From: Chlamydiota bacterium
GTDB lineage: Bacteria; Auribacterota; JACPWU01
Reading direction: 5' to 3'
NCBI GenBank assembly: GCA_016196885.1
Contig: JACPWU010000026.1
Location: 10,082 to 42,081, forward strand
DNA length: 32,000 bases
Shown here: piece after piece, positions 252 to 31,620 of the stretch
Layout: each line of letters begins with the position of its first letter
How positions within the stretch are numbered: position 1 is the first letter of the stretch
Notes under the pieces: model-generated
What the model saw: the letters and a program-made list of their open reading frames with translations, nothing else
The model's database searches: none
What the model was told of the DNA's origin: nothing
Translations under genes and position numbers: made by a program

Positions 252-263
252 AAAAAATCCAAG

Positions 264-319
264 AATCAAAATGAAAAACCAAAATCTAAAATGACTGCAC
301 AGCGACCATTTTGGATTTT
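264..319. repeat. Heptamer-periodic tract plus hairpin
   Basis: AATCAAA ATGAAAA ACCAAAA TCTAAAA (264-291). AAAATCTAAAATG (281-293) pairs with CATTTTGGATTTT (307-319): 13 bp with one G.U pair and a 13-nt loop. Confidence 0.75.
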
Positions 320-404: not shown

Positions 405-1457
405 GTGGCAAAAGAAACTCTTCATTTTGCGGATACTCATTTTGCGAGGTCTTTATTTGCTCATGACGACGAGAATTTAGAGCTCGTTGGCCGCGCCTTG
501 AAAGTCAAGGTCGTGTCGCGTGGCGATTTCATCAAAATCATTGGAGATCAAGAAGGGGTCAGAAAGGCCAGACACCTCTTTCAAGATTTGGCCAAGATGA
601 CGAGTTCTGGAAAAACGATTGAGCAGGCTGATATCATCCATGCCTTATCCAATCATGCGGAAAATGGAAGTGAACCTCACGTCATAGAAAATCTTCCTTC
701 GAACGTGATCCACGTTTCATCTCGAAAAAATCTCATTTATCCCAAATCTAAGAGTCAGTCGGATTATATCCAAGCGATTCAGAAATATGATTTGGTTCTT
801 TCGGTGGGACCTGCCGGAACGGGTAAAACCTATTTGGCTATGGCGATGGCGGTTTCTTGGCTCTTAGAAGACCGCGTTCGCCGTGTCATTCTGACACGAC
901 CTGCCGTGGAGGCGGGAGAGAGCCTAGGTTATCTGCCGGGGGATCTTTATGAAAAAATTAATCCTTACTTGCGACCTCTTTACGACGCCCTTTACGACAT
1001 GGTAGAGGTGGATCGTATTCAAAGGTATATAGAGCGTGGTATTATTGAGATTGCGCCTTTGGCCTACATGAGAGGTCGAACGCTCAACGACTCTTTCATT
1101 GTGATGGACGAAGCCCAAAACAGCACGGTTGAACAGATGAAAATGTTTTTGACCCGATTGGGTTTTAATTCCAAGGTGGTGATTACTGGAGATATCACCC
1201 AGGTGGATTTACCTGCTCATAAGCTTTCAGGTTTGGTGCATGCGAGCAAGATTTTAAGCGACATTCGCGGCATTAAAATTGTAAAATTTTCGGACAAAGA
1301 TGTGGTGAGGCATGCCCTGGTGAGGAAGATCATTCGCGCTTATGAAAGGGATCGCTCACCCCATCCACACAGTGAGCCTTCTCGAAAGAGGGCAGCGAGG
1401 ACTTCCAAAGGTGCGGAGTTTACTTCTGAGAATCAGGATGATTTATTGGCAACATGA
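405..1457 (+). CDS. phoH: PhoH-family ATPase (PhoH/YbeZ)
   Basis: GTG start preceded by GGAGAGGAG (391-399). Walker A GPAGTGKTYLAMAMA, then VMDEAQN and ITGDITQVDLP as in PhoH-like proteins. ATGA overlap with the following ybeY matches the conserved phoH-ybeY pairing. Confidence 0.9.
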   Translation: MAKETLHFADTHFARSLFAHDDENLELVGRALKVKVVSRGDFIKIIGDQEGVRKARHLFQDLAKMTSSGKTIEQADIIHALSNHAENGSEPHVIENLPSNVIHVSSRKNLIYPKSKSQSDYIQAIQKYDLVLSVGPAGTGKTYLAMAMAVSWLLEDRVRRVILTRPAVEAGESLGYLPGDLYEKINPYLRPLYDALYDMVEVDRIQRYIERGIIEIAPLAYMRGRTLNDSFIVMDEAQNSTVEQMKMFLTRLGFNSKVVITGDITQVDLPAHKLSGLVHASKILSDIRGIKIVKFSDKDVVRHALVRKIIRAYERDRSPHPHSEPSRKRAARTSKGAEFTSENQDDLLAT

Positions 1458-1930
1458 CTTCACCCAAGAAGGGGACTCCCCGTTTTTTTATTAACATCAT
1501 CAATCGTCAATCAAAATTTAAAATTCATCCTCGTAAAGTGAAGGCTTTGGCCAAGGCTGTTTTATCTCATGAAAAGGTGTTTTCCAAATGGCCTGTGGAG
1601 TTGGATATCTCTTTCGTAACGGATCGTAGAATTCGGACTTTGAATCGCCGATTCTTAGGGCATGAGGGGGCCACCGACGTGATTGCTTTTCCGGTGGATG
1701 CCCTAGCGCCCCAGGGAGCGCCTTGGATGCTGGGAGAAATCGTGGTTTCTTTGGAGAGGGCGAAGGCGCAGTCAAAGACATGGAAAAGAGATTTTCACGA
1801 GGAAGCTCTACTTTATATCATTCATGGCATTCTTCATCTCTTAGGATATCGGGATGATCGGCCTTCCTTGAAAAGAAAAATGTGGGAGAGACAGGATGAG
1901 ATTTTGAAAAAAGTTTTTCAGGGGATTTGA
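1454..1930 (+). CDS. ybeY: rRNA maturation endoribonuclease YbeY
   Basis: 158 aa with the zinc motif HGILHLLGYRD (H-x3-H-x5-H/D class). Start overlaps the phoH stop by 4 nt. Confidence 0.9.
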   Translation: MTSPKKGTPRFFINIINRQSKFKIHPRKVKALAKAVLSHEKVFSKWPVELDISFVTDRRIRTLNRRFLGHEGATDVIAFPVDALAPQGAPWMLGEIVVSLERAKAQSKTWKRDFHEEALLYIIHGILHLLGYRDDRPSLKRKMWERQDEILKKVFQGI

Positions 1931-1942
1931 AGTAAAAAACAA

Positions 1943-1970
1943 GCACGAAATTCGAAGCACGAAGCACGAA
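1943..1970. repeat. Tandem heptamer tract GCACGAA ATTCGAA GCACGAA GCACGAA (one-armed)
   Basis: Direct reading, immediately downstream of the ybeY stop. Confidence 0.8.
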
Positions 1971-2031
1971 ACAAATTCAAAATTCTAATGTTTCAATATG
2001 AAAACGTTATATTTGTGATAAAGAGGCGACA

Positions 2032-2733
2032 ATGTCTTCAAAATGGGTTCAAAGTCTTAACAATGCCGCAGAAGGTTTAATCTTTGTATTCAAGAGCCAG
2101 CGGAACATGAAGGTTCATTTTATCTTCTGTCTGGTGGTGCTTTTAGGGAGTATGTTTTTAAAGATTCATTTTCATGACTTTTTGTTTCTTGCCTTTGCGA
2201 TGACCTTTGTCTTGGTGACAGAGATGGTGAATACCTCATTAGAATTGATGATGGATATGATCAGCGAAAGTTATCATCCGCTGATTCGGGTTGCCAAGGA
2301 TGTCAGCGCAGGAGCCGTTTTGATTGCGACCCTCAACGCCTTGATCGTCGCATATTTGATGATGGCCAAATATCTGAGGCGGCCCTTCTTTTACGGCTTG
2401 GGTCGTGTGCTTCAAACCCCGTGGTATATTACCTTGATTGTGCTTCTTTTGGTTTTGGTTGTTGCCATTGGGATTAAGATTTTTATTGGGAAGGGGACCC
2501 CTTTTCACGGAGGGATGCCCAGTGCCCATGCAGCCATCGCCTTTTCGATTTGGACGGTGGTAACAGTTCTTTCTCGTGATCCTTTGATTATGACACTCAC
2601 TTTTCTGACAGCTCTCATGGTGGCTCAAGGGAGGCTTGCGAGCGGGGCCCACCGCTTTCGCGAAGTTTTCATGGGTGCTGCGTTGGGGATTCTCATTTCG
2701 CTTTTGGTCTTTCAATATATTCATCATCGGTAA
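2032..2733 (+). CDS. Fusion protein: DgkA-type diacylglycerol/undecaprenol kinase (N-terminal) plus PAP2-type lipid phosphatase (C-terminal)
   Basis: aa 1-115: TEMVNTSLELMMDMISESYHPLIRVAKDVSAGAVLIA matches the DgkA core (E.lNSaIE.vvD.i....h.l...AKD.gsaAVl). aa 125-233: GGMPSAHAAIAF and GRLASGAHRFREV resemble PAP2 motifs PSGH and SR-x5-H-x3-D. The protein is hydrophobic throughout. Confidence 0.75.
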   Translation: MSSKWVQSLNNAAEGLIFVFKSQRNMKVHFIFCLVVLLGSMFLKIHFHDFLFLAFAMTFVLVTEMVNTSLELMMDMISESYHPLIRVAKDVSAGAVLIATLNALIVAYLMMAKYLRRPFFYGLGRVLQTPWYITLIVLLLVLVVAIGIKIFIGKGTPFHGGMPSAHAAIAFSIWTVVTVLSRDPLIMTLTFLTALMVAQGRLASGAHRFREVFMGAALGILISLLVFQYIHHR

Positions 2734-2744
2734 AGGGATGCTCC

Positions 2745-3386
2745 ATGTTTTTAAAAGAGGCTCAGCTAGGGTCGCACAAAATTCGGGTGTACTTTCTGAC
2801 CGGATTGGTGGTTTCTTTACCTGTCTTGGGGTCTTTTTGGATTTTATCGCTTCTCTTTGTCAAACTCACAGACTTTATTTTTCGATATGTTTCTCCCGAA
2901 GGTGTGAATTCGGTCTGGGAAAAAATGATGTGGCGCTCGGCGGCTCTGGCCATTTTGTTTTTTGGCGTGGTCTTCATCGGACTCATCGCCCGCAATTATC
3001 TGGGCAAAAAATTGATTCAATGGGGGGAACTCATCTTAGGAAAAATTCCTGTTCTGAATAAAATTTATTCTGCCTTGAAACAAATTTTTGAATCCTTTTG
3101 GGGAAAAGGAAATTCCTTCCGAAGTGTGGTCTTGGTTGAGTTTCCGCGTGATGGGGTCTATTCTGTAGGCTTCGTGACCTCAGAGGGGCGTAATGCAATT
3201 CAAGAGAAAATAGGCCCTGATCGGGTGAGTGTTTTTATTCCAACGGTTCCAAATCCTACGTCTGGTTTTTTTATTTTTATTCCCAAAGACAAGTTAATCA
3301 AGTTGAATATCTCCATCGAGGATGCTTTTAAAATGATCATTTCCAGTGGAATGGTCACGCCTGTGGAGAAAACAATGAAAAATTAA
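2745..3386 (+). CDS. DUF502 family membrane protein
   Basis: Two N-terminal TM segments, then LGKIPVLNKIYSALKQI and IPTVPNPTSGFFIFIPKD, which are characteristic of DUF502 proteins as I recall them. Confidence 0.7.
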   Translation: MFLKEAQLGSHKIRVYFLTGLVVSLPVLGSFWILSLLFVKLTDFIFRYVSPEGVNSVWEKMMWRSAALAILFFGVVFIGLIARNYLGKKLIQWGELILGKIPVLNKIYSALKQIFESFWGKGNSFRSVVLVEFPRDGVYSVGFVTSEGRNAIQEKIGPDRVSVFIPTVPNPTSGFFIFIPKDKLIKLNISIEDAFKMIISSGMVTPVEKTMKN

Positions 3387-3444
3387 GAATGTAAAATGAA
3401 AAATTTTAAAAGGAATTACATTTTTCATTCTTCACTTTTCATTT
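3374..3444. repeat. Heptamer-periodic inverted repeat (AATGAAA type)
   Basis: Left arm: AATGAAA AATTAAG AATGTAA AATGAAA AAT. Apical segment: TTTAAAAGGAATTAC. Right arm: ATTTTTCATT CTTCACTTTTCATTT. The DUF502 stop (3384-3386) lies inside the left arm. Confidence 0.8.
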
Positions 3445-3450
3445 AAAAAT

Positions 3451-4227
3451 ATGACTCCATCCGTCGTTCGAACCTCTGCGATTCTACTCAAAAAGCACGA
3501 CTATTCAGACACCAGTCTGATTGTCACTTTCCTTACTCGCGATTTTGGTAAGATTCAATTTATCATCAAAGGGGCAAAGAAAAAGGGGACGGCTTTTGAA
3601 TATGGATCTTGCTATGAAATTCTCTTCCGGTATCGCCAAGGCCATCGAGGGTTAACCCTTCTAAGAGAGTCCCATCTTGTCAATGGCTTTCCCGCCCTTC
3701 GTAAAAGTGTCTCTCTTTTTTATTGCTCTTCTTATGCGATAGAGCTTCTGGATGCCTTTACAGAGATTGAAGATGAGGATGTCGTGCTTTTTGAAATGAT
3801 GATGATGTTTTTAACTCAATTAGGCATATCACGAGATTTAGAAGAGGTGATACGATCTTTTGAACTGAGGCTGCTTTTGCATCTGGGATTTTTGGGGGAG
3901 ACTTCTTTTTGCCAGGCTTGTAAACAATCCTTTAGATCCAAAGTTTTTTTGGAGGAAAAGAACGGCCGTCTCTTCTGCGAAAATTGTGCTCGGAATCGTT
4001 CGGAGGTCTTTCCCTCAGAAGTGTTCACTACGCTCGAAGACTTGAAAAAGGGCCGTCCTGTGAAGTGGAGTGAAAATCTCAAAAAAGAGATGAAGCGCCT
4101 TCTCTGGTTTTATATTGACTTTCATTTGGAGAAGCCTTTAAAATCGCGAAAATTCTTAACAGAGAGCAATGGGCGTTCAGTCATCAGCATTCAGCTGTCA
4201 GCTGACAGGAAACGGGTTTTTTACTAA
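3451..4227 (+). CDS. recO: DNA repair protein RecO
   Basis: N-terminal OB-fold pattern (SAILLKKHDYSDTSLIVTFLTRDFGKIQFIIKGAKK) and Cys4 zinc finger CQAC...CENC. Sits upstream of glyQS as in many bacteria. The last ~17 codons are read through a heptamer-repeat hairpin element. Confidence 0.85.
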   Translation: MTPSVVRTSAILLKKHDYSDTSLIVTFLTRDFGKIQFIIKGAKKKGTAFEYGSCYEILFRYRQGHRGLTLLRESHLVNGFPALRKSVSLFYCSSYAIELLDAFTEIEDEDVVLFEMMMMFLTQLGISRDLEEVIRSFELRLLLHLGFLGETSFCQACKQSFRSKVFLEEKNGRLFCENCARNRSEVFPSEVFTTLEDLKKGRPVKWSENLKKEMKRLLWFYIDFHLEKPLKSRKFLTESNGRSVISIQLSADRKRVFY

Positions 4228-4252
4228 ACGCTGATTGCTGAGAGCTGATGGC
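4176..4252. repeat. Heptamer-periodic inverted repeat (TCAGC/GCTGA type)
   Basis: Left arm: TTCAGTC ATCAGCA TTCAGCT GTCAGCT GAC. Right arm: CGCTGAT TGCTGAG AGCTGAT GGC. Pairing is 7+5+5 bp with 2-nt mismatches between blocks. The left arm and apex are translated as the RecO tail. Confidence 0.75.
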
Positions 4253-4263
4253 TCCTAAAAAAT

Positions 4264-5157
4264 ATGACAAAAACAAAATCACGAGCAAAAACTTTCACCC
4301 TTCAAGAGATGATTCTCTGTCTGGAATCCTACTGGTCCAGTCAAGGCTGCGTCTTGGGCCAGGCCTATGATGTAGAAGTGGGGGCCGGGACTTCCAATCC
4401 GCTCACCTTTTTTAAGGTATTGGGAAGTGATCCTTGGCGGGTGGCCTATGTACAGCCTTCTCGCCGTCCGGCCGATGGTCGCTATGGCGACAATCCCAAT
4501 CGCGTGTATCAGCATCACCAATATCAAGTGATTTTGAAACCTGCTCCTTTTGATGTTCAGGATCTCTATTTGGCCAGTCTCGAGGCGATTGGAATTGATC
4601 CTTACCAGCATGACATTCGATTTGTGGAGGACGATTGGGAATCTCCCTCTTTGGGCGCGAATGGCTTGGGTTGGGAGGTTTGGTGCGACGGGATGGAAAT
4701 CACTCAATTTACTTATTTTCAGCAAATGGGTGGGATTGAACTTCATCCCATTTCTGTGGAACTCACCTATGGCTTAGAGCGTATTGCCATGTATCTTCAA
4801 AATGTAGAAAATGTTTTTGATTTAAAATGGAATGAAAAATTTTCTTATGGGGAGCTGCGTAAACAATGGGAATATGAATTTTCGCGCTTTAATTTTGAAG
4901 AGGCAAGCGCGCAAAGTTATTTTCATCTTTTTGACGAGAGGGAGAAAGAAGCCAAAAAACTTTTGGAATTGGGATTGGTTTTCCCGGCTTATGACTCCGT
5001 GCTCAAGTGCTCTCATATTTTTAACATCCTAGATTCAAGGCGGGCCATCAGTGTGACAGAGAGAACGGGCTTTATCACAAGAATTCGTGGGATTGCTAAG
5101 GGGTGTGCGCAGAAATACTTGGAAAATCAAAATGCAAATATCAAAATGCAAAATTAA
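4264..5157 (+). CDS. glyQ: Glycine--tRNA ligase alpha subunit
   Basis: Strongly conserved GlyQ blocks: [88 protein letters not shown]. Confidence 0.95.
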
Positions 5158-5193
5158 GGAATTTTTTATTAATAAAACTACATTAATTTTGCT

Positions 5194-5268
5194 ATGAAAG
5201 TTCTTTTTGTAGTCGCCCGATTCATCGGGCAGCCCCATAAATGGGGCGACTACAAAAAGAACTTTCAT
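5194..5268 (+). repeat. REP-doublet (REPIN-like) element, copy 1
   Basis: GTAGTC GCCCGAttcaTCGGGC A GCCCCAtaaaTGGGGC GACTAC (5209-5253) is extended by a perfect 15-bp outer stem, ATGAAAGTTCTTTTT / AAAAAGAACTTTCAT. It lies between glyQ and glyS. Confidence 0.85.
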
Positions 5269-5370
5269 CGCACACGATGATCTCGAAAGATCATTGAAAT
5301 TGATATTTGATTTTTGAATTTAAACCATACGATTAAGCAGTTGTTTATGACTAGAAAAATAACCAAAGAA

Positions 5371-7485
5371 ATGAAAAGAGAAAATCTGCTTGTAGAAATC
5401 GGAACGGAAGAAATTCCAGCCCGTTTTTTAAAAGAGGCTTCGCTTCTTTTTAGAAATCTTCTGGAAGCTTTTCTCAAAGAAAATCACATTTCATATGACG
5501 AAAAAAATGTGAAGAATCTTTTCACGCCTCGACGTCTGACTCTTTTTATTCCGGAAATGATTTTGATGCAAAGTGAAAAAGTCGAAAAAGTAAAAGGGCC
5601 GCCTGTTTCAATTGCCTTAGATGCCCAGGGTGTTTGGACACAGGCCGCGCAGGCGTTTGCCTCCAAGAATGGGGTATCTCTGGATCAATTGATTCGTGAA
5701 AAAACAGAAAAAGGGGAATACCTTTTTGCCGAAAAGAAAATCAGGGGGCGTCTGACGGCAGTCCTTCTCAAAGAAAATTTGGGAACCCTTGTTCAAAAAA
5801 TTCGATTTCCCAAATCCATGCGCTGGGAGAATCGCGACATTTATTTTGCAAGACCCATTCGGTGGCTGATCGCCTTGTTGGGTTCAAAAGTCATTCCCTT
5901 TCAAGTGGGGGACCTCACGGCGGGTCGCGTGAGTTGGGGCTATCGCTGGGCTCAAAATCCGAAGGTGACGATTCCTCGGGCTAATCTTTCTCTTTATCAA
6001 AAGCTTCTCAAGTCAAAAGGCGTTTATGTGGATATTGCAGAAAGGTTAAATTTGATTCACCAGAATGCAAAAAAGGTTTTGGGAACTTCTTTAAAAATTT
6101 CTCCAGATGACGAGGATCTCTTGATGGAAGTCGCCAATTTGGTGGAATTTCCGAACGCGGCCGTTGGCCTTTTTGAAAAAAGATTTCTCTCGCTTCCTCC
6201 CCAAGTTCTTTCGATGGCAGTGAAGTATCACCAAAAGTATATACCGATTTATTCGAATGGAGAATTGACGGACCGCTTCTTGACGGTTTTTAACGGGCCC
6301 CGTTCCATTGTTCGCACGGTCCTTCTGGGGAATGAACGTGTGTTGAGGGCGAGGCTCACCGATGCTGCCTTTTTCTGGGAGCAAGATCAGAAGAAGAAAT
6401 TGTCGGAAAGGGTAGAGGATCTTAAACATGTTGTCTTTCAAGAGAAATTGGGGACTTATTTTGATAAGAAAGAAAGATTACTTCATTTTGTTGATCTCTT
6501 GAAGGATCAGTTAAAAAATGAAAATGAAAGTAACTCCCCCAACCCCTCTTCATTTGAAAAATTAAAAAGAGCTATCAATCTTTGCAAGGCTGATTTAGTG
6601 ACCTCCATGGTGGGCGAGTTTCCTGCGCTCCAGGGGATTATCGGTTCGGAATATGCGCATCTATCCGGAGAAGATCGAGAAGTGGCCCAGGCCATTGGAG
6701 AGCATTACCTTCCCCTCAGTGGCTCGGAGGGAAATTTACCCAAGACCCTTCTTGGATCGTATCTTGCCTTTCTGGATAAATTAGACAGCGTCGTGGCTTC
6801 TTTTAAAATGGGGCTGATGCCTACAGGTTCTCAAGATCCCTACGGTCTTCGGCGTCTGGGTTCAGGGCTTTTGAGAATCCTTTATGAGAAGGGGATTTCT
6901 CTCACTCTCACCCTCTTTATTGAACGGGGTTTAAAGCAGGCCCCTATCAAGGATATTTCACCTGAGCCCCTTCTTAAATTCTTCGCAGAGCGTCTTGAAA
7001 ATTTATTTTTATCTTTGGGATTTCACCACGATTTGGTTCGGGCCGTTGTGGCTCAGCAATCCCAAAATCCTTCTAAGGCTTATCAGATTTTGAAAGAGCT
7101 GAAAGGTGTTCAGGAAGAACCCTTTTTTCAAGAGGCGATCACCCTTGTCGAGAGAACTTCCAATATTTTAAAGGGAGCCCCAGTTCAAGATGGCTCGGTA
7201 GATGAGACTTTGCTCAAAGAACCTCAGGAAATAGAGCTTTACAGGACCTATCAATCCAACTATGATAGCGTGTTTCATTTGGCCCAAACGGGGGCCTTTG
7301 CCAAGGCGACTTCAGAGTATGCAAGGATTTTTGGTCCCTGTGTTCATGCCTTTTTTGACAAGGTATTGGTGAATGTGAAGGAAGAGCCCGTACGTCAGAA
7401 TCGTTTTCGATTGTTGAAGAAAATTCACGGGCTTTATGCAAATCAGATAGCAGATATTTCGAAATTAGGGAAAATACTGTCGTGA
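5371..7485 (+). CDS. glyS: Glycine--tRNA ligase beta subunit
   Basis: MKRENLLVEIGTEEIPARFL is the canonical GlyS N-terminus, so ATG 5371 is preferred over the TTG at 5314 used in the ORF track. The size (about 700 aa) and position after glyQ fit. The TGA stop lies inside the first heptamer of the downstream repeat. Confidence 0.9.
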   Translation: MKRENLLVEIGTEEIPARFLKEASLLFRNLLEAFLKENHISYDEKNVKNLFTPRRLTLFIPEMILMQSEKVEKVKGPPVSIALDAQGVWTQAAQAFASKNGVSLDQLIREKTEKGEYLFAEKKIRGRLTAVLLKENLGTLVQKIRFPKSMRWENRDIYFARPIRWLIALLGSKVIPFQVGDLTAGRVSWGYRWAQNPKVTIPRANLSLYQKLLKSKGVYVDIAERLNLIHQNAKKVLGTSLKISPDDEDLLMEVANLVEFPNAAVGLFEKRFLSLPPQVLSMAVKYHQKYIPIYSNGELTDRFLTVFNGPRSIVRTVLLGNERVLRARLTDAAFFWEQDQKKKLSERVEDLKHVVFQEKLGTYFDKKERLLHFVDLLKDQLKNENESNSPNPSSFEKLKRAINLCKADLVTSMVGEFPALQGIIGSEYAHLSGEDREVAQAIGEHYLPLSGSEGNLPKTLLGSYLAFLDKLDSVVASFKMGLMPTGSQDPYGLRRLGSGLLRILYEKGISLTLTLFIERGLKQAPIKDISPEPLLKFFAERLENLFLSLGFHHDLVRAVVAQQSQNPSKAYQILKELKGVQEEPFFQEAITLVERTSNILKGAPVQDGSVDETLLKEPQEIELYRTYQSNYDSVFHLAQTGAFAKATSEYARIFGPCVHAFFDKVLVNVKEEPVRQNRFRLLKKIHGLYANQIADISKLGKILS

Positions 7486-7564
7486 GTCGTCGGTCGTGAG
7501 TCGTGAGTTTTAAAGGTGTTATTTTTTACTCACGACTCACCCCTCACGACTCACGACAGTATTT
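7472..7564. repeat. Heptamer-periodic inverted repeat, family B (GTCGTGA type), full copy
   Basis: Left arm: 4 units GTCGTGA/GTCGTCG (7479-7506). Apex: GTTTTAAAGGTGTTATTTTTTAC. Right arm: 4 units TCACGAC/TCACCCC (7530-7557). The outer arms AAATACTGTCGTGA/TCACGACAGTATTT are perfectly complementary. The glyS TGA lies in unit 1. Confidence 0.9.
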
Positions 7565-7584
7565 AAAAACGGAGGATTTTTTTC

Positions 7585-10251
7585 ATGCAGAAGACGGAAT
7601 CGGTGGCAACAAAAACTTCAAATCAATCCGTGAAATTTGTCTATTTTTTTGGGGGCGGCAAAGCTGAAGGCGATGCCAAAATGAAAGATTTGCTCGGCGG
7701 CAAAGGAGCCAATCTGGCCGAGATGACCCATTTAGGAATTCCTGTTCCGCCGGGTTTCACGATTTCGACTCAAGCCTGCCAACTCTATTATGAAAGGTCT
7801 CTTCAGTTTCCGCAGGGGCTCAAGGGAGAAGTGGAATCTGCCTTGCATCATTTAGAAGGCCTCATGGGGAAGCGCCTGGGCGATCCTCAGGATCCGCTTC
7901 TGGTGTCGGTGCGTTCAGGGGCTGCCGTTTCCATGCCTGGAATGATGGACACGGTTCTTAACTTGGGACTCAATTCTCAATCGGTGAATGGGCTTGCCAC
8001 CAAAACTGGGAATGAACGCTTCGCATGGGACTCTTATCGCCGCTTTATTCAAATGTTTGGAGATGTGGTGATGGAAGTAGAGCATCACCGTTTTGAAGAG
8101 GCCTTGACTCAGATCAAGGAGAAAAAGGGGGTTCATTTCGATCATGAATTGGACGCCGTTGATTTAAAAGAATTGGTCAGTCAATATAAAAGAATCGTCC
8201 GAGAAATCAGGGGCCAGGATTTTCCAGAAAGCCCTATAGACCAGCTTTGGCTGGCCATCAGTGCTGTGTTTGGATCTTGGAACAATTCTCGTGCGATTAA
8301 ATACCGTCAATTGAATGAAATTCGAGGCCTTTTCGGAACGGCCGTCAATATTCAGTCCATGGTGTTTGGAAACATGGGAAATACCTCCGGTACCGGCGTT
8401 GCCTTTACACGCAATCCTTCCACAGGAGAGAATAAACTCTACGGCGAATTTTTGATGAATGCGCAGGGTGAAGATGTGGTAGCCGGCATTCGTACGCCCC
8501 TTCCTTTGGCGGAGTTGAAAAAAGTGATGTCTCAAGTTTACGATCAATTCATGGATATTTCTAAAAAGTTGGAGCAGCATTACAAGGACATGCAGGATAT
8601 TGAATTCACCATTCAGGAAGGGAAGCTCTATCTTTTGCAGACCCGTTCTGGGAAAAGAACCGCTCATGCGGCGGTCCGAGTCGCGGTGGAGGCTTTTAAG
8701 GAGGGGCTCATTGACCGAAAAACTGCGATTCTTCGTGTCAATCCGACCCAGCTTGATCAGCTTTTACATCCCATGATTCATTCCAAGACAAAATATCAAG
8801 TGGCCGCGAAAGGTCTTCCCGCCTCGCCCGGCGCTGCCGTGGGGCAAATTGTTTTTTCAGCCTTGAAAGCTGAGGAATGGGATGAGCAAGGTAAAAAAGT
8901 GATTTTGGTTCGCTCCGAGACTTCTCCCGAAGACATTGGCGGAATGGCTGTGGCTCAGGGGATTTTAACCGCTCGCGGTGGAATGACTTCTCATGCGGCC
9001 GTGGTCGCTCGAGGCATGGGGAAATGCTGTGTCGCTGGCTGTCAGGACTTGGCGGTGGATGAGAGTGGCGAGAGTTGCCGCATAGGCAAGAAGGTTTTAA
9101 AGGAAGGGGATGAAATTACCCTCAATGGTTCCACGGGAGAGGTCATTTTGGGGGCTGTCCCTCTGGTGAGTCCCGAATTTAGCGGTGAATTCGGAGAACT
9201 CATGAAATGGGCCGATGAAATCCGCCGCCTCAAGATTCGCACCAATGCAGATACGCCCAACGATTGCAAAGTGGCTCGCCGCTTCGGTGCAGAGGGAATC
9301 GGTTTGTGCCGTACTGAACATATGTTTTTTGAAGGGGATCGCATTGACCCTGTTCGAGAGATGATTTTGGCGGAAGATCGGGTCGGCCGGGAAAAGGCTT
9401 TGGCCAAACTTTTACCTATTCAGAAGGGAGATTTCATCGGAATTTTTGAGGAAATGGAGGGACTCCCTGTCACCATCCGTCTTCTGGATCCCCCCTTGCA
9501 TGAATTTATTCCTCACACGGATGAAGAAATTCGAAATCTTTCTAAAAAAATAAATGTCTCTGCGGAAAAACTAAAGGCCAAGAGTGAGTCCTTGAAAGAA
9601 TTTAATCCCATGTTGGGTCATCGAGGATGCAGACTCGGAATCAGTTTCCCAGAAATTTACAAGATGCAAACGCAGGCCATTTTCGAAGCGGCCTGTGAAG
9701 TCTCCAAAAAAGGGGTTCGAGTCATTCCGGAAGTGATGATTCCCTTGGTGGGAGACGTGAATGAATTAAAGGTGCTCAGAACGGATCTGGAAGAAGTGGC
9801 CAGGGACGTGATGGAAAAGGCCCATGCCAAAATAGAATATTCCTTTGGCACGATGATTGAAATTCCCCGGGCAGCTTTAACGGCCGATGCCATTGCCGAG
9901 GTCGCGCAGTTTTTCTCTTTTGGAACCAATGATCTGACCCAGATGACATTCGGTTTCAGCCGGGACGACGCCGGTGTTTTCTTGAAGGATTATTTGGAGA
10001 AGGGAATTTTACAGGATGATCCCTTTCAGGTCCTGGATCGAAGCGGAGTCGGAGCCATGATGAAAATTGCCATTGAAAAGGGCCGATCTACCAATCCCAA
10101 GATTAAGCTCGGTATTTGCGGAGAACATGGTGGGAATCCTCCTTCGATTGAATTCTGCCATATGTTGGGCATGGATTATGTTAGTTGCTCCCCTTACCGG
10201 GTTCCCATTGCCAGGCTTGCAGCGGCTCATGCGCAGCTTAAAAATGGTTGA
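7585..10251 (+). CDS. ppdK: Pyruvate, phosphate dikinase
   Basis: 888 aa; GGAGG 10 nt upstream of the ATG. Contains ATP-grasp [10 protein letters not shown], phospho-histidine loop [15 protein letters not shown] and C-terminal PEP-utilising motif GICGEHGG. Confidence 0.95.
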
Positions 10252-10366
10252 TTCGTTCTTGGGATCGTCGTTTGTCGTTCGCTATTGGTATTTCGTGAAA
10301 TACAAATAAATAAGTGATAGAATAGCCTTCATACGAAATACGAATGACGAGATACGAGCGACGAAA
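10252..10366. repeat. Heptamer-periodic inverted repeat (ACGAxxx type)
   Basis: Right arm: CGAAATA CGAATGA CGAGATA CGAGCGA CGAAAA (10334-10366). Left arm: TCGTCGT TTGTCGT TCGCTAT TGGTATT TCGT. The core GTATTTCGT/ACGAAATAC pairs perfectly and the rest imperfectly. The element fills the whole ppdK-sigma gap. Confidence 0.75.
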
Positions 10367-11203
10367 ATGTCAGAATCGACAGCGGATCCCGTACAGATCT
10401 ACTTGAAGCAAATCGGAGAGATCTCTCTTCTTTCTCGCGAAGAAGAGCAGAATCTGGCCCGGCTTTCTCAAAAAGGCAATGAAGAAGCCCGACGTGCGAT
10501 GGTCAAGGCTAACTTACGTTTGGTTGTGACCATTGCTAAAAAGTACATGCATTTGGGCCTCTCCTTTTTAGACCTCATTGAAGAAGGCAATCTCGGACTT
10601 ATGAAGGCGGTTGAAAAGTTTGATGTGGAAAAAGGTTGCAAGCTAAGTACCTATGCTTCCTGGTGGATCAAACAAGGGATTATGAGGGCGCTTGCCAATC
10701 AAGCCAAAATGATTCGCCTTCCTGTTTACATGGTTGAAAAGGTGACCTCGATTCACAAGGCTTCAGAGACCCTCTTTAAGAAATTAGGTCGCAAAGCCAC
10801 CCCTGAAGAAATCGGAGGTTATATCGGGGTGGCTCCTGAAAAGGTTTTGGAGCTTCAAAGTATATCCAAAAATCCAGAATCTCTTCATGAAACTGTGGGA
10901 GAAGATGGGGTAAGCGAGCTCATTGATATGATCTCAGATGAGGGAACTGCCAGCCCTCAAAGGGCCCTTGCGGTTCAGATGGTACAGGACAATATCATGG
11001 AACTTTTACATGCGATGGACGACCGAGAAGCTAAAATTGTGACCTGGCGATTTGGTCTTTTTGGAGATACTCCGAAGACATTAGAAGAGATTGGGCAAAA
11101 GATAGGAATCACTCGAGAAAGGGTCCGTCAGATTTGTGAGTTGGCGATTGGAAAAATGCGTGAGCTTTTGAACGCGAAACATCTGAAATACGAAGATTTT
11201 TAA
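10367..11203 (+). CDS. RNA polymerase sigma factor, RpoD/SigA family (short, 278 aa)
   Basis: Region 2: [12 protein letters not shown]...[20 protein letters not shown]...[12 protein letters not shown]. Region 4.2: [28 protein letters not shown]. No region 1.1. Whether it is the primary sigma factor cannot be decided from this window. Confidence 0.85.
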
Positions 11204-11749
11204 ATGAAAACGCTTGAAATTCCTCAAGACCTCACCCAACCATTAAAAGACATCATTCGAGATGTACCAGATTTTCCCAAGAAGGGGATTTTGTTTAAAG
11301 ACATTACACCTCTCTTGAAAGAGGGCCCTCTTTTTCGAGAAGTGATTCAGCATCTAGCCCAGAGGTATCGTGATGCAAAACCCGATGTGATTGTGAGTGT
11401 AGAATCCAGAGGTTTTTTTCTGGGGGCTCCCCTGGCTTTTGAATTGGGAGTCGGTATTGTCCCCGTTCGAAAAAAGGGAAAACTTCCTCGAAAAACAAAA
11501 TCTGTCAGCTATGAGCTTGAATATGGGTTGGATCATCTTGAAATTCATGAAGGCGATTTAAAAAAAGCTCATCGTGTTTTAATTGTGGATGACGTTTTGG
11601 CCACCGGTGGAACCATTTCTGCTGTTGTGAAATTGGTAGAAGATTCGGGGGCCCAAGTGATGGGCATTGATTTTCTCATAGAACTTCTCTTTCTTAAGGG
11701 GCGAGAGAAGTTGAAGAAGTATGAAGTGTTTTCGATGGTGCAATACTAA
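11204..11749 (+). CDS. apt: Adenine phosphoribosyltransferase
   Basis: DFPKKGILFKDITPLL N-terminal block and PRPP loop VLIVDDVLATGGT. 181 aa. The start codon immediately follows the sigma-factor stop. Confidence 0.9.
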   Translation: MKTLEIPQDLTQPLKDIIRDVPDFPKKGILFKDITPLLKEGPLFREVIQHLAQRYRDAKPDVIVSVESRGFFLGAPLAFELGVGIVPVRKKGKLPRKTKSVSYELEYGLDHLEIHEGDLKKAHRVLIVDDVLATGGTISAVVKLVEDSGAQVMGIDFLIELLFLKGREKLKKYEVFSMVQY

Positions 11750-11753
11750 TAAA

Positions 11754-11853
11754 GCAGGGATTAGGGTTAAGGGTGTAGGGTTTTAGGGAGTAAGGATTTT
11801 TATTAATGAAATGCTTATGCCCTACACCCTTAACCCTAATCCCTATCCCCTGC
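11754..11853. repeat. Heptamer-periodic inverted repeat, family C (TAGGGTx type), copy 1
   Basis: TTAGGGTTAAGGGTGTAGGG (11761-11780) pairs perfectly with CCCTACACCCTTAACCCTAA (11820-11839). The outer arms are GCAGGGA.../...CCCCTGC. The apex contains TTTTAGGGAGTAAGGATTTTTATT. It lies between apt and tRNA-Arg. Confidence 0.9.
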
Positions 11854-11861
11854 CTTAAATC

Positions 11862-11936
11862 TGCCCCCGAGACGAGTCGAACGTCCGACCTAGGCTTTAG
11901 GAAAGCCTCGCTCTATCCAAGCTGAGCTACGGGGGC
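11862..11936 (-). tRNA. tRNA-Arg (anticodon CCT)
   Basis: The reverse complement folds by hand into a cloverleaf: acceptor GCCCCCG/CGGGGGC, D arm GCTC..GAGC, anticodon stem AGGCT/AGCCT with loop TTCCTAA, T arm GGACG TTCGACT CGTCT, discriminator A. No encoded CCA. Confidence 0.9.
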
Positions 11937-11981
11937 GTTATAAGTTTCACTAATCTAATACAAAGCGGAGCAGGTGAAAAG

Positions 11982-12629
11982 ATGAAAAATAAAATTTTGC
12001 AAAAGAAAAATGTTCTTCTCCCTCCCAAAAAATCCCTTTCCATTCAAGTTTGGAAATGGTTGGTTTCTTATCGTTCCTCTTTGCTGGGGTTGACTTCGAT
12101 GGTCTTGCTTGTAGGATTGATGGGGGGAGGATGGTTCTCTTATCAAAATTGGCGTCAGGACAAGGCCATGCGTTTATTATCTGACGCAAAGGACGATAAC
12201 GTATTGGATCAAGTCATCGAAAAATATCCTAAGACTCCCGCAGCTCTCTATGCCCTTATTGGACAGGGTGCAAGTAAAGTAGAGCAAGGCAAGATGTCGG
12301 ATGCCATACAAGCTTATGAAAAATTTTTGTTTCTCTATCCCCGTCATCTTTTTGTGCCTTGGGTGAAAAATGCCCTTGGAGAGTGCTACCTTCATGAGAA
12401 GCGTTTTGCCGAGGCAGAGGTTCTTTTCAAGGCGCTTTCTCAAGCCCCAGATTCTTCTTTTCTAGAAATCCAGGTCAAGATGAATTTGGCTCGGCTAGAG
12501 ATTATGAAAGGTCGGGTGAACCAGGGAGTAGAGGAGATTAAGAAGTTTCGCGAGAATCATTCCACTGCGATATGGAAGGACAATTTTGAAGCTTTTGTAA
12601 GATTTAATTCTAAGAATGTCCAGAAATGA
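11982..12629 (+). CDS. Membrane-anchored TPR-like protein (YfgM-like architecture)
   Basis: One N-terminal TM helix (LLGLTSMVLLVGLMGGGWF) followed by helical repeat sequence with TPR-like A/Y/L spacing (AIQAYEKFLFLYP, ALGECYLHEKRFAEAEVLFKAL). The family assignment is an inference. Confidence 0.55.
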   Translation: MKNKILQKKNVLLPPKKSLSIQVWKWLVSYRSSLLGLTSMVLLVGLMGGGWFSYQNWRQDKAMRLLSDAKDDNVLDQVIEKYPKTPAALYALIGQGASKVEQGKMSDAIQAYEKFLFLYPRHLFVPWVKNALGECYLHEKRFAEAEVLFKALSQAPDSSFLEIQVKMNLARLEIMKGRVNQGVEEIKKFRENHSTAIWKDNFEAFVRFNSKNVQK

Positions 12630-12669
12630 GCTATTTTCCTTGTTTCAAAGGGGTTACGGAAAATTTTTC

Positions 12670-12698
12670 TTGACCTATTACAGTCAGTTAGATAAACT
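12670..12698 (+). promoter_or_regulatory. Possible sigma70-type promoter (TTGACC-17-TAAACT)
   Basis: TTGACC at 12670-12675, 17-nt spacer, TAAACT at 12693-12698. It would give a roughly 260-nt leader ahead of the beta-barrel gene. The -10 element is weak. Confidence 0.3.
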
Positions 12699-12966
12699 GG
12701 CCTTGCTTATCATTAAAGGGGGTTTTGGGTTTACGGCATTTCTTTTTGAGAGGCTGTTCAGAAAGAGACATTCCAAAAGGTGTCCGGACGTGTGTCAGGA
12801 TGACTTTAGGCGGTCTGTTTTTCAGCAGCCCAAACATCGCAAACAACATCATAGGCAGCTTTAGTCAGGCAAGAAAGGGGGGATGGTCTTTATTTTTTCG
12901 CCTTGAACTGCCCAGGTGATGATGATCATAAATCTAAGTGAGAAAACAAGATAAGGGAGGGTATAG

Positions 12967-14283: not shown

Positions 14284-14308
14284 TCAGGAAAGTTGTTTCG
14301 AGTTTCAA

Positions 14309-14345
14309 ATCCCCCCCGACGTTACGTCGGGGGGGATTTTTTTTT
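14309..14345 (+). terminator. Rho-independent terminator
   Basis: ATCCCCCCCGACG tta CGTCGGGGGGGAT forms a 13-bp GC-rich stem followed by a T9 run. Confidence 0.9.
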
Positions 14346-14347
14346 GG

Positions 14348-14376
14348 CTGACAGAAAGTAAAGTTAAAGATATCAT
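14348..14376 (+). promoter_or_regulatory. Possible promoter for the tRNA-Gln/tRNA-Glu pair (CTGACA-17-TATCAT)
   Basis: CTGACA at 14348-14353, 17-nt spacer, TATCAT at 14371-14376, about 40 nt upstream of tRNA-Gln. Confidence 0.35.
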
Positions 14377-14414
14377 GTTGCGCGCAATGGCTATGAGTGA
14401 GCCATAGACTTTTC

Positions 14415-14485
14415 TGCCGGATCGTCTAATGGTAGGACCGCAGACTCTGGATCTGTGTATCTAGGTTCGAATCCTAGTCCGGCAG
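14415..14485 (+). tRNA. tRNA-Gln (anticodon CTG)
   Basis: Hand-folded cloverleaf: acceptor TGCCGGA/TCCGGCA (a U1-A72 pair is typical of tRNA-Gln), D arm GTCT..GGAC, anticodon stem GCAGA/TCTGT with loop CTCTGGA, T arm CTAGG TTCGAAT CCTAG, discriminator G. Confidence 0.9.
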
Positions 14486-14493
14486 CTTTTAAA

Positions 14494-14594
14494 GGTAGGG
14501 GTTAGGGATTAGGGTGTAGGGTTTAGGGAGTAAGGATTTTTATTCAGTGAAAAACCTTGTCCCTTCACCCTAAACCCTATACCCTAATCCCTGC
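14494..14594. repeat. Family C inverted repeat, copy 2
   Basis: GGGATTAGGGTGTAGGGTTTAGGGAGTAAGGATTTTTATT shares about 38 nt almost identically with copy 1. The right arm is CCTTGTCCCTTCACCCTAAACCCTATACCCTAATCCCTGC. It lies between tRNA-Gln and tRNA-Glu. Confidence 0.9.
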
Positions 14595-14601
14595 ATTTTT
14601 C

Positions 14602-14674
14602 GGCCCCATCGTCTAGAGGCCTAGGACATTACCCTCTCAAGGTAGGGACACGGGTTCGAATCCCGTTGGGGCTA
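14602..14674 (+). tRNA. tRNA-Glu (anticodon CTC)
   Basis: Acceptor GGCCCCA/TGGGGCT, D arm GTCT AGAGGCCTA GGAC (typical of tRNA-Glu), anticodon stem TTACC/GGTAG with loop CTCTCAA, T arm ACGGG TTCGAAT CCCGT. Confidence 0.9.
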
Positions 14675-14683
14675 GTTTATAAA

Positions 14684-14724
14684 GCAGGGATGAGGGAGAA
14701 GGGCGTAGGGTTTAGGGATTTTTA
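14684..14724. repeat. Family C, left arm only
   Basis: GCAGGGA TGAGGGA GAAGGGC GTAGGGT TTAGGGA TTTTTA, directly after tRNA-Glu. It begins with the same AAAGCAGGGA as copy 1, and no complementary arm follows. Confidence 0.8.
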
Positions 14725-17503: not shown

Positions 17504-17567
17504 ACAGTCGTGAGCCGTGAGGGATGAGTCGTGAGTTTTAAAGGTGTTATTTCTTACTCACGACTGT
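17504..17567. repeat. Family B inverted repeat, truncated copy
   Basis: GTCGTGA GCCGTGA GGGATGA GTCGTGA, then GTTTTAAAGGTGTTATTTCTTAC, then a single TCACGAC unit. ACAGTCGTGA (17504-17513) is perfectly complementary to TCACGACTGT (17558-17567). A 41-nt stretch matches the 7472-7564 copy with two differences. Confidence 0.9.
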
Positions 17568-17616: not shown

Positions 17617-17645
17617 TTGACATTTCAGCTTTTTCGCGCTATAAT
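17617..17645 (+). promoter_or_regulatory. Consensus sigma70 promoter TTGACA-17-TATAAT
   Basis: TTGACA at 17617-17622, exactly 17 nt of spacer, TATAAT at 17640-17645. It lies 31 nt upstream of the ATG of the 1039-aa ORF and just downstream of the ppc hairpin element. Confidence 0.65.
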
Positions 17646-29014: not shown

Positions 29015-29073
29015 CCCGCATTTCATCTGAAAATAGTCTTTACTCTTTCTTATACAATGACTCATGATGACTT

Positions 29074-29145
29074 GTAGTCGCCCGATTTATCGGGCAATGC
29101 CCAATGCCCCAATGTCATAGACCGCCCCATAAATGGGGCGACTAC
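29074..29145 (+). repeat. REP-doublet element, copy 2 (28-nt insert between the two REP hairpins)
   Basis: GTAGTC GCCCGAtttaTCGGGC [aatgcccaatgccccaatgtcatagacc] GCCCCAtaaaTGGGGC GACTAC. It lies in the convergent gap between the two GH144-like genes. Confidence 0.85.
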
Positions 29146-29266
29146 AAGGGTGCAGACGAGGCGGAATCGGCGTTCGCAGCAGAAATGTGATGAGAAATGC
29201 GGGCTAGCCCTCATAACCCCTTCATTATGACTCAGATCAGCCGAGTCGAGTCGGGGGGGAATTACA

Positions 29267-31210: not shown

Positions 31211-31351
31211 AAGGTGTCAGGCTCCTTTAAGTTTTTAACTGTAAAGTTTGCCTTCCTCGTTCACCTTGTTTTGCTATCAATGTGGATCTCGAAAATATCT
31301 TTTTCCCCTCAGACTGTCCGAAAATTCCCTCCCCCTTGTGGGGAGGGTTTT

Positions 31352-31396: not shown

Positions 31397-31419
31397 ACAA
31401 GCTTGAACGAGAGAGAGGA

Positions 31420-31454
31420 ATCCAACATCCATCATCCATGATCCATCATCCACT
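31420..31454. repeat. Tandem heptamer tract ATCCAAC ATCCATC ATCCATG ATCCATC ATCCACT (one-armed)
   Basis: Direct reading, adjacent to REP-doublet copy 3. Confidence 0.85.
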
Positions 31455-31620
31455 TTCACAACAAGAGGGGAATACAAGGAATCTAAAAATCATTTATCAA
31501 TTTCGAGATTCACGTTATAAAAGAAAAAAACTCATTCCCCTGATTGGTTTTTTCTCTGATGCCAATGTCATTAGGTGGTATGCCTTTCAGGTGAATGAGC
31601 CTTGAAAATAAGCCTAAAAT

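Follow-up and report, generated by a model that had tools for sequence, protein, structure and literature searches.

We analysed a 32,000-nt stretch of DNA (the window) from the Chlamydiota bacterium assembly GCA_016196885.1, contig JACPWU010000026.1, starting from a hairpin built of heptanucleotide repeats at positions 7472-7564, between glyS and ppdK. The window holds at least twelve foldback elements of this kind, in which mirror arrays of 3-6 degenerate heptanucleotide units enclose an AT-rich apex. They have been added, in a lineage-specific way, to operon spacers and to the 3' ends of genes. They form multi-copy families, their arm lengths differ by multiples of 7 nt, and variants of the unit are mirrored between the two arms. 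On balance, we consider that these elements are most likely foldback repeats of a selfish or neutral nature rather than a dedicated regulator, and that slippage, templating of one arm by the other and non-autonomous spread would have shaped them, with RNA stems as an incidental product.

Heptanucleotide foldbacks in the window

The focal foldback is 93 nt long. Its arms (7472-7508 and 7528-7564) contain approximately four GTCGTGA-type units each and flank a 19-nt AT-rich apex (7509-7527) that reads TTTTAAAGGTGTTATTTTTTA. The left arm is CTGTCGTGA GTCGTCG GTCGTGA GTCGTGA G, and the right arm is C TCACGAC TCACCCC TCACGAC TCACGAC AG. Read in the other register, the element is AAATACTG TCGTGAG TCGTCGG TCGTGAG TCGTGAG, the apex TTTTAAAGGTGTTATTTTTTA, and CTCACGA CTCACCC CTCACGA CTCACGA CAGTATTT, in agreement with the initial annotation of this DNA. 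The arms are 89% complementary across 37 nt, and the stem is broken only by a single variant unit in each of them, GTCGTCG in the left arm and TCACCCC in the right. When folded as RNA, the region gave a 34-bp stem of -56.6 kcal/mol, compared to a mean of -25.9 for shuffled sequences (z = -9.0). The stop codon of glyS (TGA, 7483-7485) sits within the first unit of the left arm, the ppdK ribosome-binding site GGAGG lies 12 nt past the stem, and the 3' flank, TATTTAAAAAC, has no U-run. The element belongs to a family (A) with two members in the window:

7472..7564, plus strand: family A foldback, copy 1, at the glyS/ppdK junction (z -9.0, -56.6 kcal/mol)
17505..17566, plus strand: family A foldback, copy 2, downstream of ppc, with 86% identity to copy 1 over 66 nt

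Copy 2 has the same apex (TTTTAAAGGTGTTATTTCTTA) and the same units as copy 1, with four units on the left and a single unit on the right. At the base of the stem it pairs CAG..CTG where copy 1 pairs CTG..CAG, a compensatory difference that keeps the pairing. A plasmid database search with the focal hairpin gave no match.

Period-7 tracts were called where at least 15 of 21 positions equalled the base one period away, with low-complexity sequence removed. The scan found 16 such tracts in the window, whereas 100 shuffles that preserved dinucleotides gave 0.36 on average and never more than 2, so that the excess over shuffled controls expected by the initial annotation was recovered. Each of the periods 4-6, 8-13, and 15 gave 0-3 tracts, and period 14, a multiple of 7, gave 7. 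Tandem Repeats Finder placed period-7 arrays at 254, 1941, 3374, 3419, 5123, 5300, 7479, 7528, 10331, 14496, 14567, 17506, and 31420. The density of period-7 tracts was 0.5/kb in the window and 0.046/kb in a control set that comprised 1.36 Mb of 80 unrelated genomes and in which periods 6 and 9 were dominant; the control set was taken from a contig search with PPDK, in which the matches listed were at most 67% identical and came from many phyla.

Twelve of the 16 tracts were wholly intergenic and two more spanned stop codons, while intergenic DNA makes up 9.9% of the window. The remaining two were found in the element-encoded tail of RecO and within ybeY (1496-1527). A reverse-complement partner within 250 nt accompanied 13 of the 16 tracts, compared to 17 of 300 random segments. 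The proposal that most gaps in the housekeeping half carry such an element was likewise borne out, as the first 17.7 kb has 14 spacers of more than 25 nt and 11 of these carry a tract, whereas the second half has four spacers between genes and no tract in any of them. All hairpins listed here fold strongly (z -2.4 to -9.0). The pattern is real, because the period-7 excess, the intergenic bias and the inverted partners all exceed their controls. With at least three head-to-tail 7-nt copies beyond chance and a mainly non-coding location, the arrays qualify as heptanucleotide simple-sequence repeats (SSRs) of the short tandemly repeated repetitive (STRR) type. In Rfam, only tRNAs and one c-di-GMP-I riboswitch passed the gathering threshold, and the hairpins gave sub-threshold matches to generic microRNA-precursor models. 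The other elements, with one canonical terminator for contrast, are as follows (REP, repetitive extragenic palindromic; ORF, open reading frame):

11751..11856, plus strand: family B (TAGGGxx), copy 1, between prt and the convergent tRNA-Arg gene; -56.9 kcal/mol
14492..14597, plus strand: family B, copy 2, between tRNA-Gln and tRNA-Glu; -64.4 kcal/mol
14683..14721, plus strand: family B, copy 3, left arm only, directly 3' of tRNA-Glu
3371..3446, plus strand: AATGAAA-unit hairpin, spanning the DUF502 stop codon (3386) and ending 5 nt short of the recO start
4176..4257, plus strand: TCAGCxx-unit hairpin, whose left arm and apex are the last ~17 codons of recO
10267..10366, plus strand: ACGAxxx-unit hairpin (TCGTxxx on the left arm), with the right arm adjoining the start codon of the sigma-factor gene
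254..319, plus strand: family K (ATCAAAA-type), short copy, 3 nt past the stop codon of the preceding ORF
5121..5154, plus strand: family K left arm, encoding the C-terminal tail of GlyQ
5294..5325, plus strand: family K right arm (TTGATTT units), with a REP-like double hairpin (5190-5272) nested between the arms
1941..1975, plus strand: one-armed GCACGAA array in the ybeY-dgkA spacer
31416..31458, plus strand: one-armed ATCCATC array of 4.7 copies, upstream of a minus-strand glucoamylase-family gene
14307..14349, plus strand: canonical intrinsic terminator downstream of the Alginate_exp gene (G+C-rich stem of 15 bp, loop of 3 nt, T9 run)

Approximately seven unit types were distributed across 17 kb. 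Self-comparison of the window grouped the elements at 11751 and 14492 in one family (B) and those at 7472 and 17500 in another (A). The apices, which the initial annotation had described as looking alike, resemble each other within these families (for 7472 and 17500, 86% over 66 nt); across families, the only common trait is a purine-rich AGG followed by a T-run. The hairpin that had been placed at 10252-10366 is present with a weak left arm, and its loop contains a promoter-like site (10295-10323). In family B copy 1, a perfect 25-bp core (11756-11780 and 11820-11844) is 100% complementary, the right arm is one unit longer, and the variants ATTAGGG, TTAAGGG, and TGTAGGG are mirrored in the same order in both arms. 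The arms are therefore copies of each other whose lengths differ by whole units. Family B copies start 8-10 nt past the 3' ends of tRNA genes, namely tRNA-Arg on the minus strand and tRNA-Gln and tRNA-Glu on the plus strand.

A G-quadruplex formed by the G-rich arm and modulating transcription or translation can be considered for family B only, as all three copies carry five GGG tracts at 4-nt spacing and such heptamer repeats form quadruplexes in vitro (PMC4692102); a role of this kind has been put forward for the GGGNATC repeats of Xanthomonas and Nostoc. However, this explanation covers one family of about seven, and the C-rich arm present in two of the three copies strongly favours the duplex, which makes it scarcely credible.

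The initial annotation also held that the hairpins are not ordinary intrinsic terminators, and the consensus scan agreed with this view, selecting none of them but selecting 14307-14349, so the organism does make use of ordinary terminators. As a class, the hairpins have neither the short G+C-rich stem with a 3-8-nt loop, nor a U-run within 0-2 nt, nor a position at the end of a transcription unit. Seven copies in the window are two-armed, of which six lack a U-run; one was found only after 14492-14597 (GCATTTTTCGG). We also considered that the hairpins are unusual, U-less terminators or attenuators. They do lie downstream of stop codons, one is followed by TTTTT (14492-14597), one separates convergent transcription units (11751-11856), and the apices of metagenomic family K loci (see below) contain G+C-rich mini-hairpins followed by (TTTTGAT)n, which resembles an extended U-tract. 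Yet stems of 25-40 bp with apices of 19-40 nt are unlike intrinsic terminators, and hairpins occupy the recO-glyQ, glyQ-glyS, and glyS-ppdK junctions, where some relatives have only 4-12 nt. The products of glyQ and glyS are subunits of one enzyme, and other junctions that hold hairpins measure 8-40 nt in relatives. At several of the hairpins, termination would part genes that are expressed together. This alternative therefore appears improbable. A further idea, that the arrays supply stop codons in all three frames, was rejected, being true for only 5 of 11 left arms.

An assembly artefact was also considered and is countered by an independent Logan assembly, which is 100% identical to the window over 7528-14633, three hairpins included. 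The Logan contigs of SRR12113387 (L082 and L001) start or end within hairpin arms, at window positions 5292, 7506, and 7528. Since they end at 7506 and 7528, the focal apex (7509-7527) lies outside both contigs and has no independent confirmation. Heptamer palindromes may be able to break short-read assemblies.

Junctions in syntenic relatives

We compared the window with five relatives (L083, L086, L087, L088, and L090) that have the nearest GlyS proteins (56-60% identical) and share the gene order phoH-ybeY-dgkA-DUF502-recO-glyQ-glyS-ppdK-sigma-...-Alginate_exp-tRNAs. The GlyS protein of the window is identical to one from a metagenome-assembled genome labelled 'Chlamydiae bacterium', and beyond the relatives the next GlyS matches were from anammox Planctomycetes at ~40%, which places the source among uncultured bacteria of the Planctomycetes-Verrucomicrobia-Chlamydiae group. 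Spacer lengths at three junctions were as follows:

glyS-ppdK spacer: 99 nt in the window; 12 nt in L083, 42 nt in L086, 20 nt in L090, and 95 nt in L088
glyQ-glyS spacer: 156-189 nt in the window; 8 nt in L083, 8 nt in L086, and 4 nt in L088; 244 nt in L087
ybeY-dgkA spacer: 101 nt in the window; 6 nt or an overlap in the relatives

In L087, the long glyQ-glyS spacer is taken up by a K-type hairpin of its own, together with a called ORF of 51 aa. Protein alignments revealed that RecO of the window has a 19-residue extra tail (…ESNGRSVISIQLSADRKRVFY), which is encoded by the left arm and apex of 4176-4257 and is absent in the relatives, and that the C-terminal tail of GlyQ is encoded by the family K array. 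By these alignments, the hairpins have overwritten the ends of genes (RecO and GlyQ, with the glyS stop codon in the first unit of the focal arm). Because the junctions are short in the relatives, and because a non-coding motif elsewhere is conserved in the same genomes whereas the hairpins are not, most hairpins would be lineage-specific insertions and not conserved regulators.

The elements are not confined to the window, as the relatives and 504 kb of metagenome contigs described below share the period-7 excess; confinement had been named as an outcome that would speak against the initial annotation. L087 has 12 period-7 tracts in 22 kb, mostly of family K, and a GCTCGAA hairpin of -56.8 kcal/mol. 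L086 carries an AGGGCTA-unit hairpin in the DUF502-recO spacer, where the window has the AATGAAA hairpin, and a TAGGG-type hairpin beside tRNA-Gln. In L088, TAGTG-type hairpins surround tRNA-Gln and tRNA-Glu, and one of them ends in ...CCCTAGCTTTTCGGCCCC, compared to ...CCCTGCATTTTTCGGCCCC in the window copy. The tRNA-Gln/Glu hairpin of L088 is a counterpart by position, retained despite deep divergence, and both of its arms have changed to another unit. Isolated heptamer hairpins were also found in control contigs of Phycisphaeraceae, Paceibacterota, Clostridium sp. N3C, Bacteroidales, and Heliomicrobium.

These comparisons bear on the possibility that the hairpins are selected post-transcriptional elements, which would set cistron ratios by blocking 3'-exonucleases or by RNase III cleavage and in which the heptamers would only build or tune the stems. 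Such a role is compatible with the great stability of the stems, with their location at gene 3' ends where the downstream ribosome-binding site is left free (for ppdK, GGAGG 12 nt past the stem), and with the precedent of operons whose RNA is selectively processed and stabilised (SRPS; PMC4423207). The heptamer hairpins of unrelated units in the DUF502-recO spacer of both the window and L086, and the tRNA-Gln/Glu hairpin kept in L088, point in the same direction, but most hairpins are absent at the same junctions of the relatives and they have damaged gene ends. In addition, a real non-coding motif is conserved in the same genomes, unlike the hairpins, and the slightly better folding of the sense strand is confounded by compositional skew. 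We therefore regard selected elements as an unlikely explanation. Asymmetry between G·U and A·C pairs was also tried as a gauge of selection at the RNA level and set aside, as it gave a weak sense bias confounded by the GC and AT skew.

The conserved motif is approximately 90 nt long, lies directly 5' of the Alginate_exp-family porin gene and reads CATCATAGGCAGCTTT..GGCAAGAAAGGGGGGATGG..CAGGTGATG. It was found at 12848-12935 in the window, ~17775-17865 in L083, ~17632-17720 in L086, and ~14177-14265 in L088. It is kept in all four of these genomes, in contrast to other spacers, and its consensus hairpin has two compensatory pairs. No Rfam match was found at E <= 1, and the motif is a candidate new cis-regulatory RNA. 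After the same Alginate_exp gene, the relatives carry the same kind of terminator as the window has at 14307-14349.

The relatives also have a ~200-nt structured insert (…GGCCGACCGGAG…) after each tRNA gene, which ends in a duplicated tRNA 3' end and is absent from the window (L083 ~16497-16750, ~19463-19740, and ~19816-20010; L086 ~16364-16640; L088 ~15950-16140). These inserts match no Rfam family and may represent an element, either integrated or of retro type, with tRNA genes as its target. The tRNA-Arg(CCT) gene is inverted in the window (11862-11936, minus strand) and in L088 (13206-13279, minus strand) compared to L083 (16423-16496, plus strand) and L086 (16290-16363, plus strand), and a family B hairpin is located at the window junction of this inverted gene.

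Family K cassettes and intervening sequences

Family K was traced beyond the window by a 22-mer of its left arm, TCAAAATGCAAATATCAAAATG (5127-5148 in the window; also in L087), which was found in 110 stretches of the JGI metagenome collection, on contigs with a G+C content from 27% to 64%. At these loci, the conserved left arm continues as ...[C/A/T]AAAATGACAAT..AAAAT, the apex is variable and often has a nested G+C-rich mini-hairpin, and a (TTTTGAT)n right arm closes the element. The right arm often adjoins the start codons of housekeeping genes (dnaJ, ssb, rpsM, or rplP) or encodes the C-terminal tails of such genes. With the anchor excluded, 504 kb of these contigs contained 183 period-7 tracts (0.363/kb), compared to 70, 51, and 65 tracts of periods 6, 8, and 9, respectively. 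The first 80 of the 110 loci gave 136 tracts with 80 distinct canonical units, and two thirds of the tracts in the metagenome loci had an inverted partner.

This variety of units excludes a single telomerase-like template, one form of the templated origin that the initial annotation had raised. It also disfavours a platform for an oligomeric RNA- or DNA-binding protein in a 7-nt register, whether HutP- or TRAP-like, of the S1, cold-shock protein or CsrA type, or an Sm-like ring. The periodicity is strict, as such a platform would have it, UAG recurs every 7 nt in family B, and a protein-binding role has been proposed for TAACTGA repeats (PMC4679880). The two most variable unit columns were adjacent in 130 of 232 arrays, compared to an expected one third, a statistic inflated by related arrays and 14-nt super-periods; units thus tend to consist of a conserved core and about two variable positions. 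On the other side, unit sequences vary by locus and genome (the 80 units in 136 tracts), the repeats are sequestered within a stem, and the window contains no candidate binder gene. HutP and TRAP recognise a conserved UAG or GAG triplet at fixed spacing in a single-stranded leader upstream of the operon they regulate, whereas the UAG period was found only in the TAGGG family, whose arrays are paired and lie by tRNA genes. A HutP-like or other sequence-specific oligomeric binder, which had been offered as a speculation, is thus very unlikely.

In five loci (L092, L094, L104, L132, and L143), the K arms enclose a gene of 123-124 aa, and the left-arm heptamer array supplies its start codon and first ~12 codons (MQNDNVKFKNEFK). 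The product belongs to PF05635, '23S rRNA-intervening sequence protein' (E = 1.4e-18), and to TIGR02436, 'four helix bundle protein'. Its homologues number more than 4200, of which the closest (80-100% identical) are from Parcubacteria, Wolfebacteria, Beckwithbacteria, and other Patescibacteria. At a further locus (L189, 208-850), the K arms enclose a 117-aa ORF that starts with MQNDNAKSK as in the four-helix-bundle genes and has a different body (…YVNHS…), which suggests an exchange of cargo behind a fixed, arm-encoded N-terminus. In L099, the 23S rRNA gene (1346-4803, minus strand) is 3458 nt long compared to a 2925-nt model, with insertions of 60 nt near model position 228 and of ~170 nt near 312, the latter with a heptamer-armed hairpin. 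A plasmid database search with the family K cassette gave no match. It was also proposed that the apices are the leftover ribosome-binding site and spacer of a lost cargo gene, as their AAGG...TTTTT resembles the ribosome-binding-site context of the clade; this idea is unsupported, since in the family K cassette the start codon lies within the arm and a site of that kind is missing.

The rRNA intervening sequences (IVSs) are described as selfish stem-loops that are bounded by inverted repeats of ~28 bp, may or may not contain an S23p ORF, undergo horizontal spread and are cut out of the RNA by RNase III (PMC4990558). In the bacteria of the candidate phyla radiation, both 23S_rRNA_IVP ORFs and short insertions without an ORF are known in rRNA genes (PMC11270868). 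The window elements share the long terminal inverted repeats that form a stem, and in predicted folds their stems are longer than the ~20 bp usually needed by RNase III. Further points of likeness are the metagenomic arms of family K, which flank the IVS gene family, and the heptamer hairpin in the 23S insertion of L099. By contrast, the window copies lie in mRNA spacers without an ORF; the PF05635/TIGR02436 gene was found only in family K outside the window, in no window copy and with no link for family A, and families A-E have no demonstrated link to IVSs. No description of heptamer-structured arms was found for IVSs in the literature searched. Because metagenomic K arms flank an IVS-type gene and the IVS literature describes comparable forms, the K hairpins of the window look like miniature, gene-less derivatives of the PF05635 cassette that have settled in mRNA spacers.

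A broader proposal, which we put forward tentatively and hold to be doubtful, is that heptad-armed foldbacks constitute one coherent, widespread and undescribed class of IVS-like selfish cassettes. Its full-length members would bear a gene (PF05635 in five loci, another ORF in L189), and the miniatures of the window would have lost it. Its sites would be the spacers of operons, the ends of genes, and rRNA, both in Patescibacteria and in the lineage of the window as well as elsewhere, and the 7-nt register would come from a copying or mobilising mechanism instead of generic polymerase slippage.

The REP-like double hairpin that is nested in the family K hairpin has three copies in the window (5190-5272, 29071-29148, and 31348-31400) and reads GTAGTCGCC-CGATTCATCGGGC-A-GCCCCATAAATGGGGC-GACTAC; it had no match in viral contigs. 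The tract at 29096-29117, originally listed as a one-armed 7-nt array, proved to be a mixed 7/8-nt tract (period 8 in Tandem Repeats Finder) in the middle of the second copy, and so belongs to a different element. A c-di-GMP-I riboswitch aptamer was identified at 31666-31748 on the minus strand (63.5 bits, compared to a gathering score of 35), of which the segment 31709-31733 resembles one arm of the REP-like element. The ORF at 17676-20795 (plus strand, 1039 aa) has no Pfam family above threshold; upstream of it, positions 17617-17645 match a sigma-70-type promoter perfectly (TTGACA-17-TATAAT).

Array dynamics and relation to known repeats

Changes within arrays were observed in three pairs of contigs, a small sample that comes from metagenomes and not from the source of the window. 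A 21-nt indel, equal to three units, lies within a heptamer array between L123 and L141, which are 98.8% identical; a 7-nt indel lies within an array between L176 and L195, and one of 14/15 nt between L161 and L176. Together with the whole-unit differences between arms and between copies, these indels fit slipped-strand change in 7-nt steps.

We suggest that the arrays lengthen and shorten by replication slippage, 7 nt per step, and that the complementarity of the arms may be maintained by intramolecular templating, through hairpin-mediated template switching or arm-to-arm conversion. The families would colonise further loci as small non-autonomous passengers, like REP sequences, miniature transposable elements with inverted repeats (MITEs) or rRNA IVSs, and the ATCAAAA family at least would be a miniature of a cassette whose full-length PF05635 gene starts in the left arm. 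Transcribed within operon mRNAs, the elements would form double-stranded stems of 25-40 bp. Their most plausible action, an incidental one, would be to hold up 3'-exonucleases or to serve as substrates of RNase III and so to uncouple the stability of the flanking cistrons, as in SRPS operons. In a minority, co-option into terminator or processing hairpins may have occurred, for which the tRNA-flanking TAGGG family is the candidate, given the U-run of 14492-14597 and its counterpart in a distant relative. The mobile origin envisaged in the initial annotation is accordingly supported in part, by the multiple copies, their absence at the junctions of relatives, the overwritten gene 3' ends and the probable derivation of family K from a cassette.

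Several observations weigh against this explanation. No target-site duplication or empty site is definable against relatives with GlyS only 56-60% identical; although these lack elements at the same junctions, the divergence blocks definition of the insertion boundaries, and transposition is thus unproven. Copies within families are 71-86% identical and so give no sign of recent movement. The 32-kb window contains no transposase gene, neither of the REP-associated tyrosine transposase (RAYT) nor of the insertion sequence (IS) type, nor another mobilising gene. Exact-pattern scans for the family A apex gave no match in viral or metagenome contigs, and families A-E lack a known cargo-bearing relative. 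The slippage scheme gives no reason for a step of 7 nt, and every effect of the hairpins at the RNA level is one that we infer. The position of the tRNA-Gln/Glu hairpin, kept between the window and L088 at 56% GlyS identity, suggests selection on at least that copy. Finally, sense folds were slightly more stable than antisense folds (mean -36.8 vs -33.3 kcal/mol, p = 0.027; 62 vs 43 G·U pairs). This could reflect selection on the RNA, yet the window has a strong GC and AT skew that could produce the bias without selection.

Three tandemly repetitive heptanucleotides have reportedly been found in Calothrix, and cyanobacterial STRRs were reportedly described by Mazel et al. 1990. The window arrays are the same as prokaryotic heptanucleotide SSRs and STRRs in their tandem 7-nt units, in the presence of several types per genome, and in their intergenic location and over-representation. 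They differ in that most are paired in hairpins, the unit is nearly unique to each locus, and 11 of 14 spacers are occupied; in addition, the host is not a cyanobacterium but a metagenome-assembled genome (MAG) of the Planctomycetes-Verrucomicrobia-Chlamydiae type, labelled as Chlamydiae. Among the long simple-sequence repeats of prokaryotes, heptanucleotide repeats are the most common and exceed those of other unit lengths (PMC4692102, PMC4679880), and a published suggestion for the heptamer excess, as summarised in PMC4679880, is that the polymerase footprint favours slippage.

Rehm et al. 2015 (PMC4692102) described GGGAATC (GGGNATC) repeats in Xanthomonas and GGGGA(C/T)T repeats in Nostoc, with 70-75 convergent pairs per Xanthomonas genome that are able to form stem-loops. 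These arrays lie between co-oriented ORFs, less than 50 bp from stop or start codons, and in Xanthomonas the number of units varies by species while the single or inverted type is preserved (PMC4692102). They resemble family B in their G3N4 quadruplex potential. However, Xanthomonas has essentially one unit genome-wide, whereas the window has many unrelated units, most without G-tracts. In Beggiatoaceae, TAACTGA direct repeats are located just 5' of start codons (PMC4679880), as are the window array at 10331-10366 and many family K loci, and Geobacter metallireducens has heptamer arrays of four or five units, some of them paired on opposite strands (PMC2700814). Those genomes have one or two units each, mostly as direct repeats, in contrast to the hairpins of the window.

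The elements also qualify as a dispersed multi-copy inverted-repeat family in the sense of REP sequences and MITEs, with two copies of family A, three of family B, and two of family K in the window and the 110 metagenome stretches. Like REP sequences, bacterial interspersed mosaic elements (BIMEs), REP doublets forming hairpins (REPINs) and MITEs (PMC3116915), they are short intergenic palindromes that occur in many copies, are often nested (as with 5190-5272 within the family K hairpin) and are transcribed in operons. Unlike them, they have arms with an internal 7-nt period, and neither a RAYT or other transposase nor a definable target-site duplication was found. For their possible action in RNA, the closest model by analogy would be the intergenic stem-loops of SRPS operons, which lack a U-run and stabilise upstream cistrons (PMC4423207). 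Both are operon-internal and stand at cistron 3' ends, and in SRPS the free energy sets the ratio of transcripts. The SRPS stem-loops are, however, shorter (-7 to -32 kcal/mol), orthologous between species and non-repetitive.

Heptamer repeats, including inverted pairs, are therefore already known from Xanthomonas, cyanobacteria and Beggiatoaceae, and the window is a further, very dense case. The link between a heptamer family and the IVS four-helix-bundle cassette was not found in the literature searched; the loci that support it lie outside the window, and it does not so far include family A. The bacterial preference for 7-nt tandem repeats, often in inverted pairs, has been a puzzle since the cyanobacterial descriptions. 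The window is of value here because its elements are dense and varied, with mirrored variants and unequal arms, and because relatives with element-free junctions are available for comparison. For the annotation of MAGs, such elements matter in that they overwrite gene ends (RecO and GlyQ) and may break short-read assemblies. The link to the K cassette might outweigh the window itself, since gene-bearing, miniature, and rRNA-inserted forms can be compared and the cassettes are abundant in Patescibacteria.

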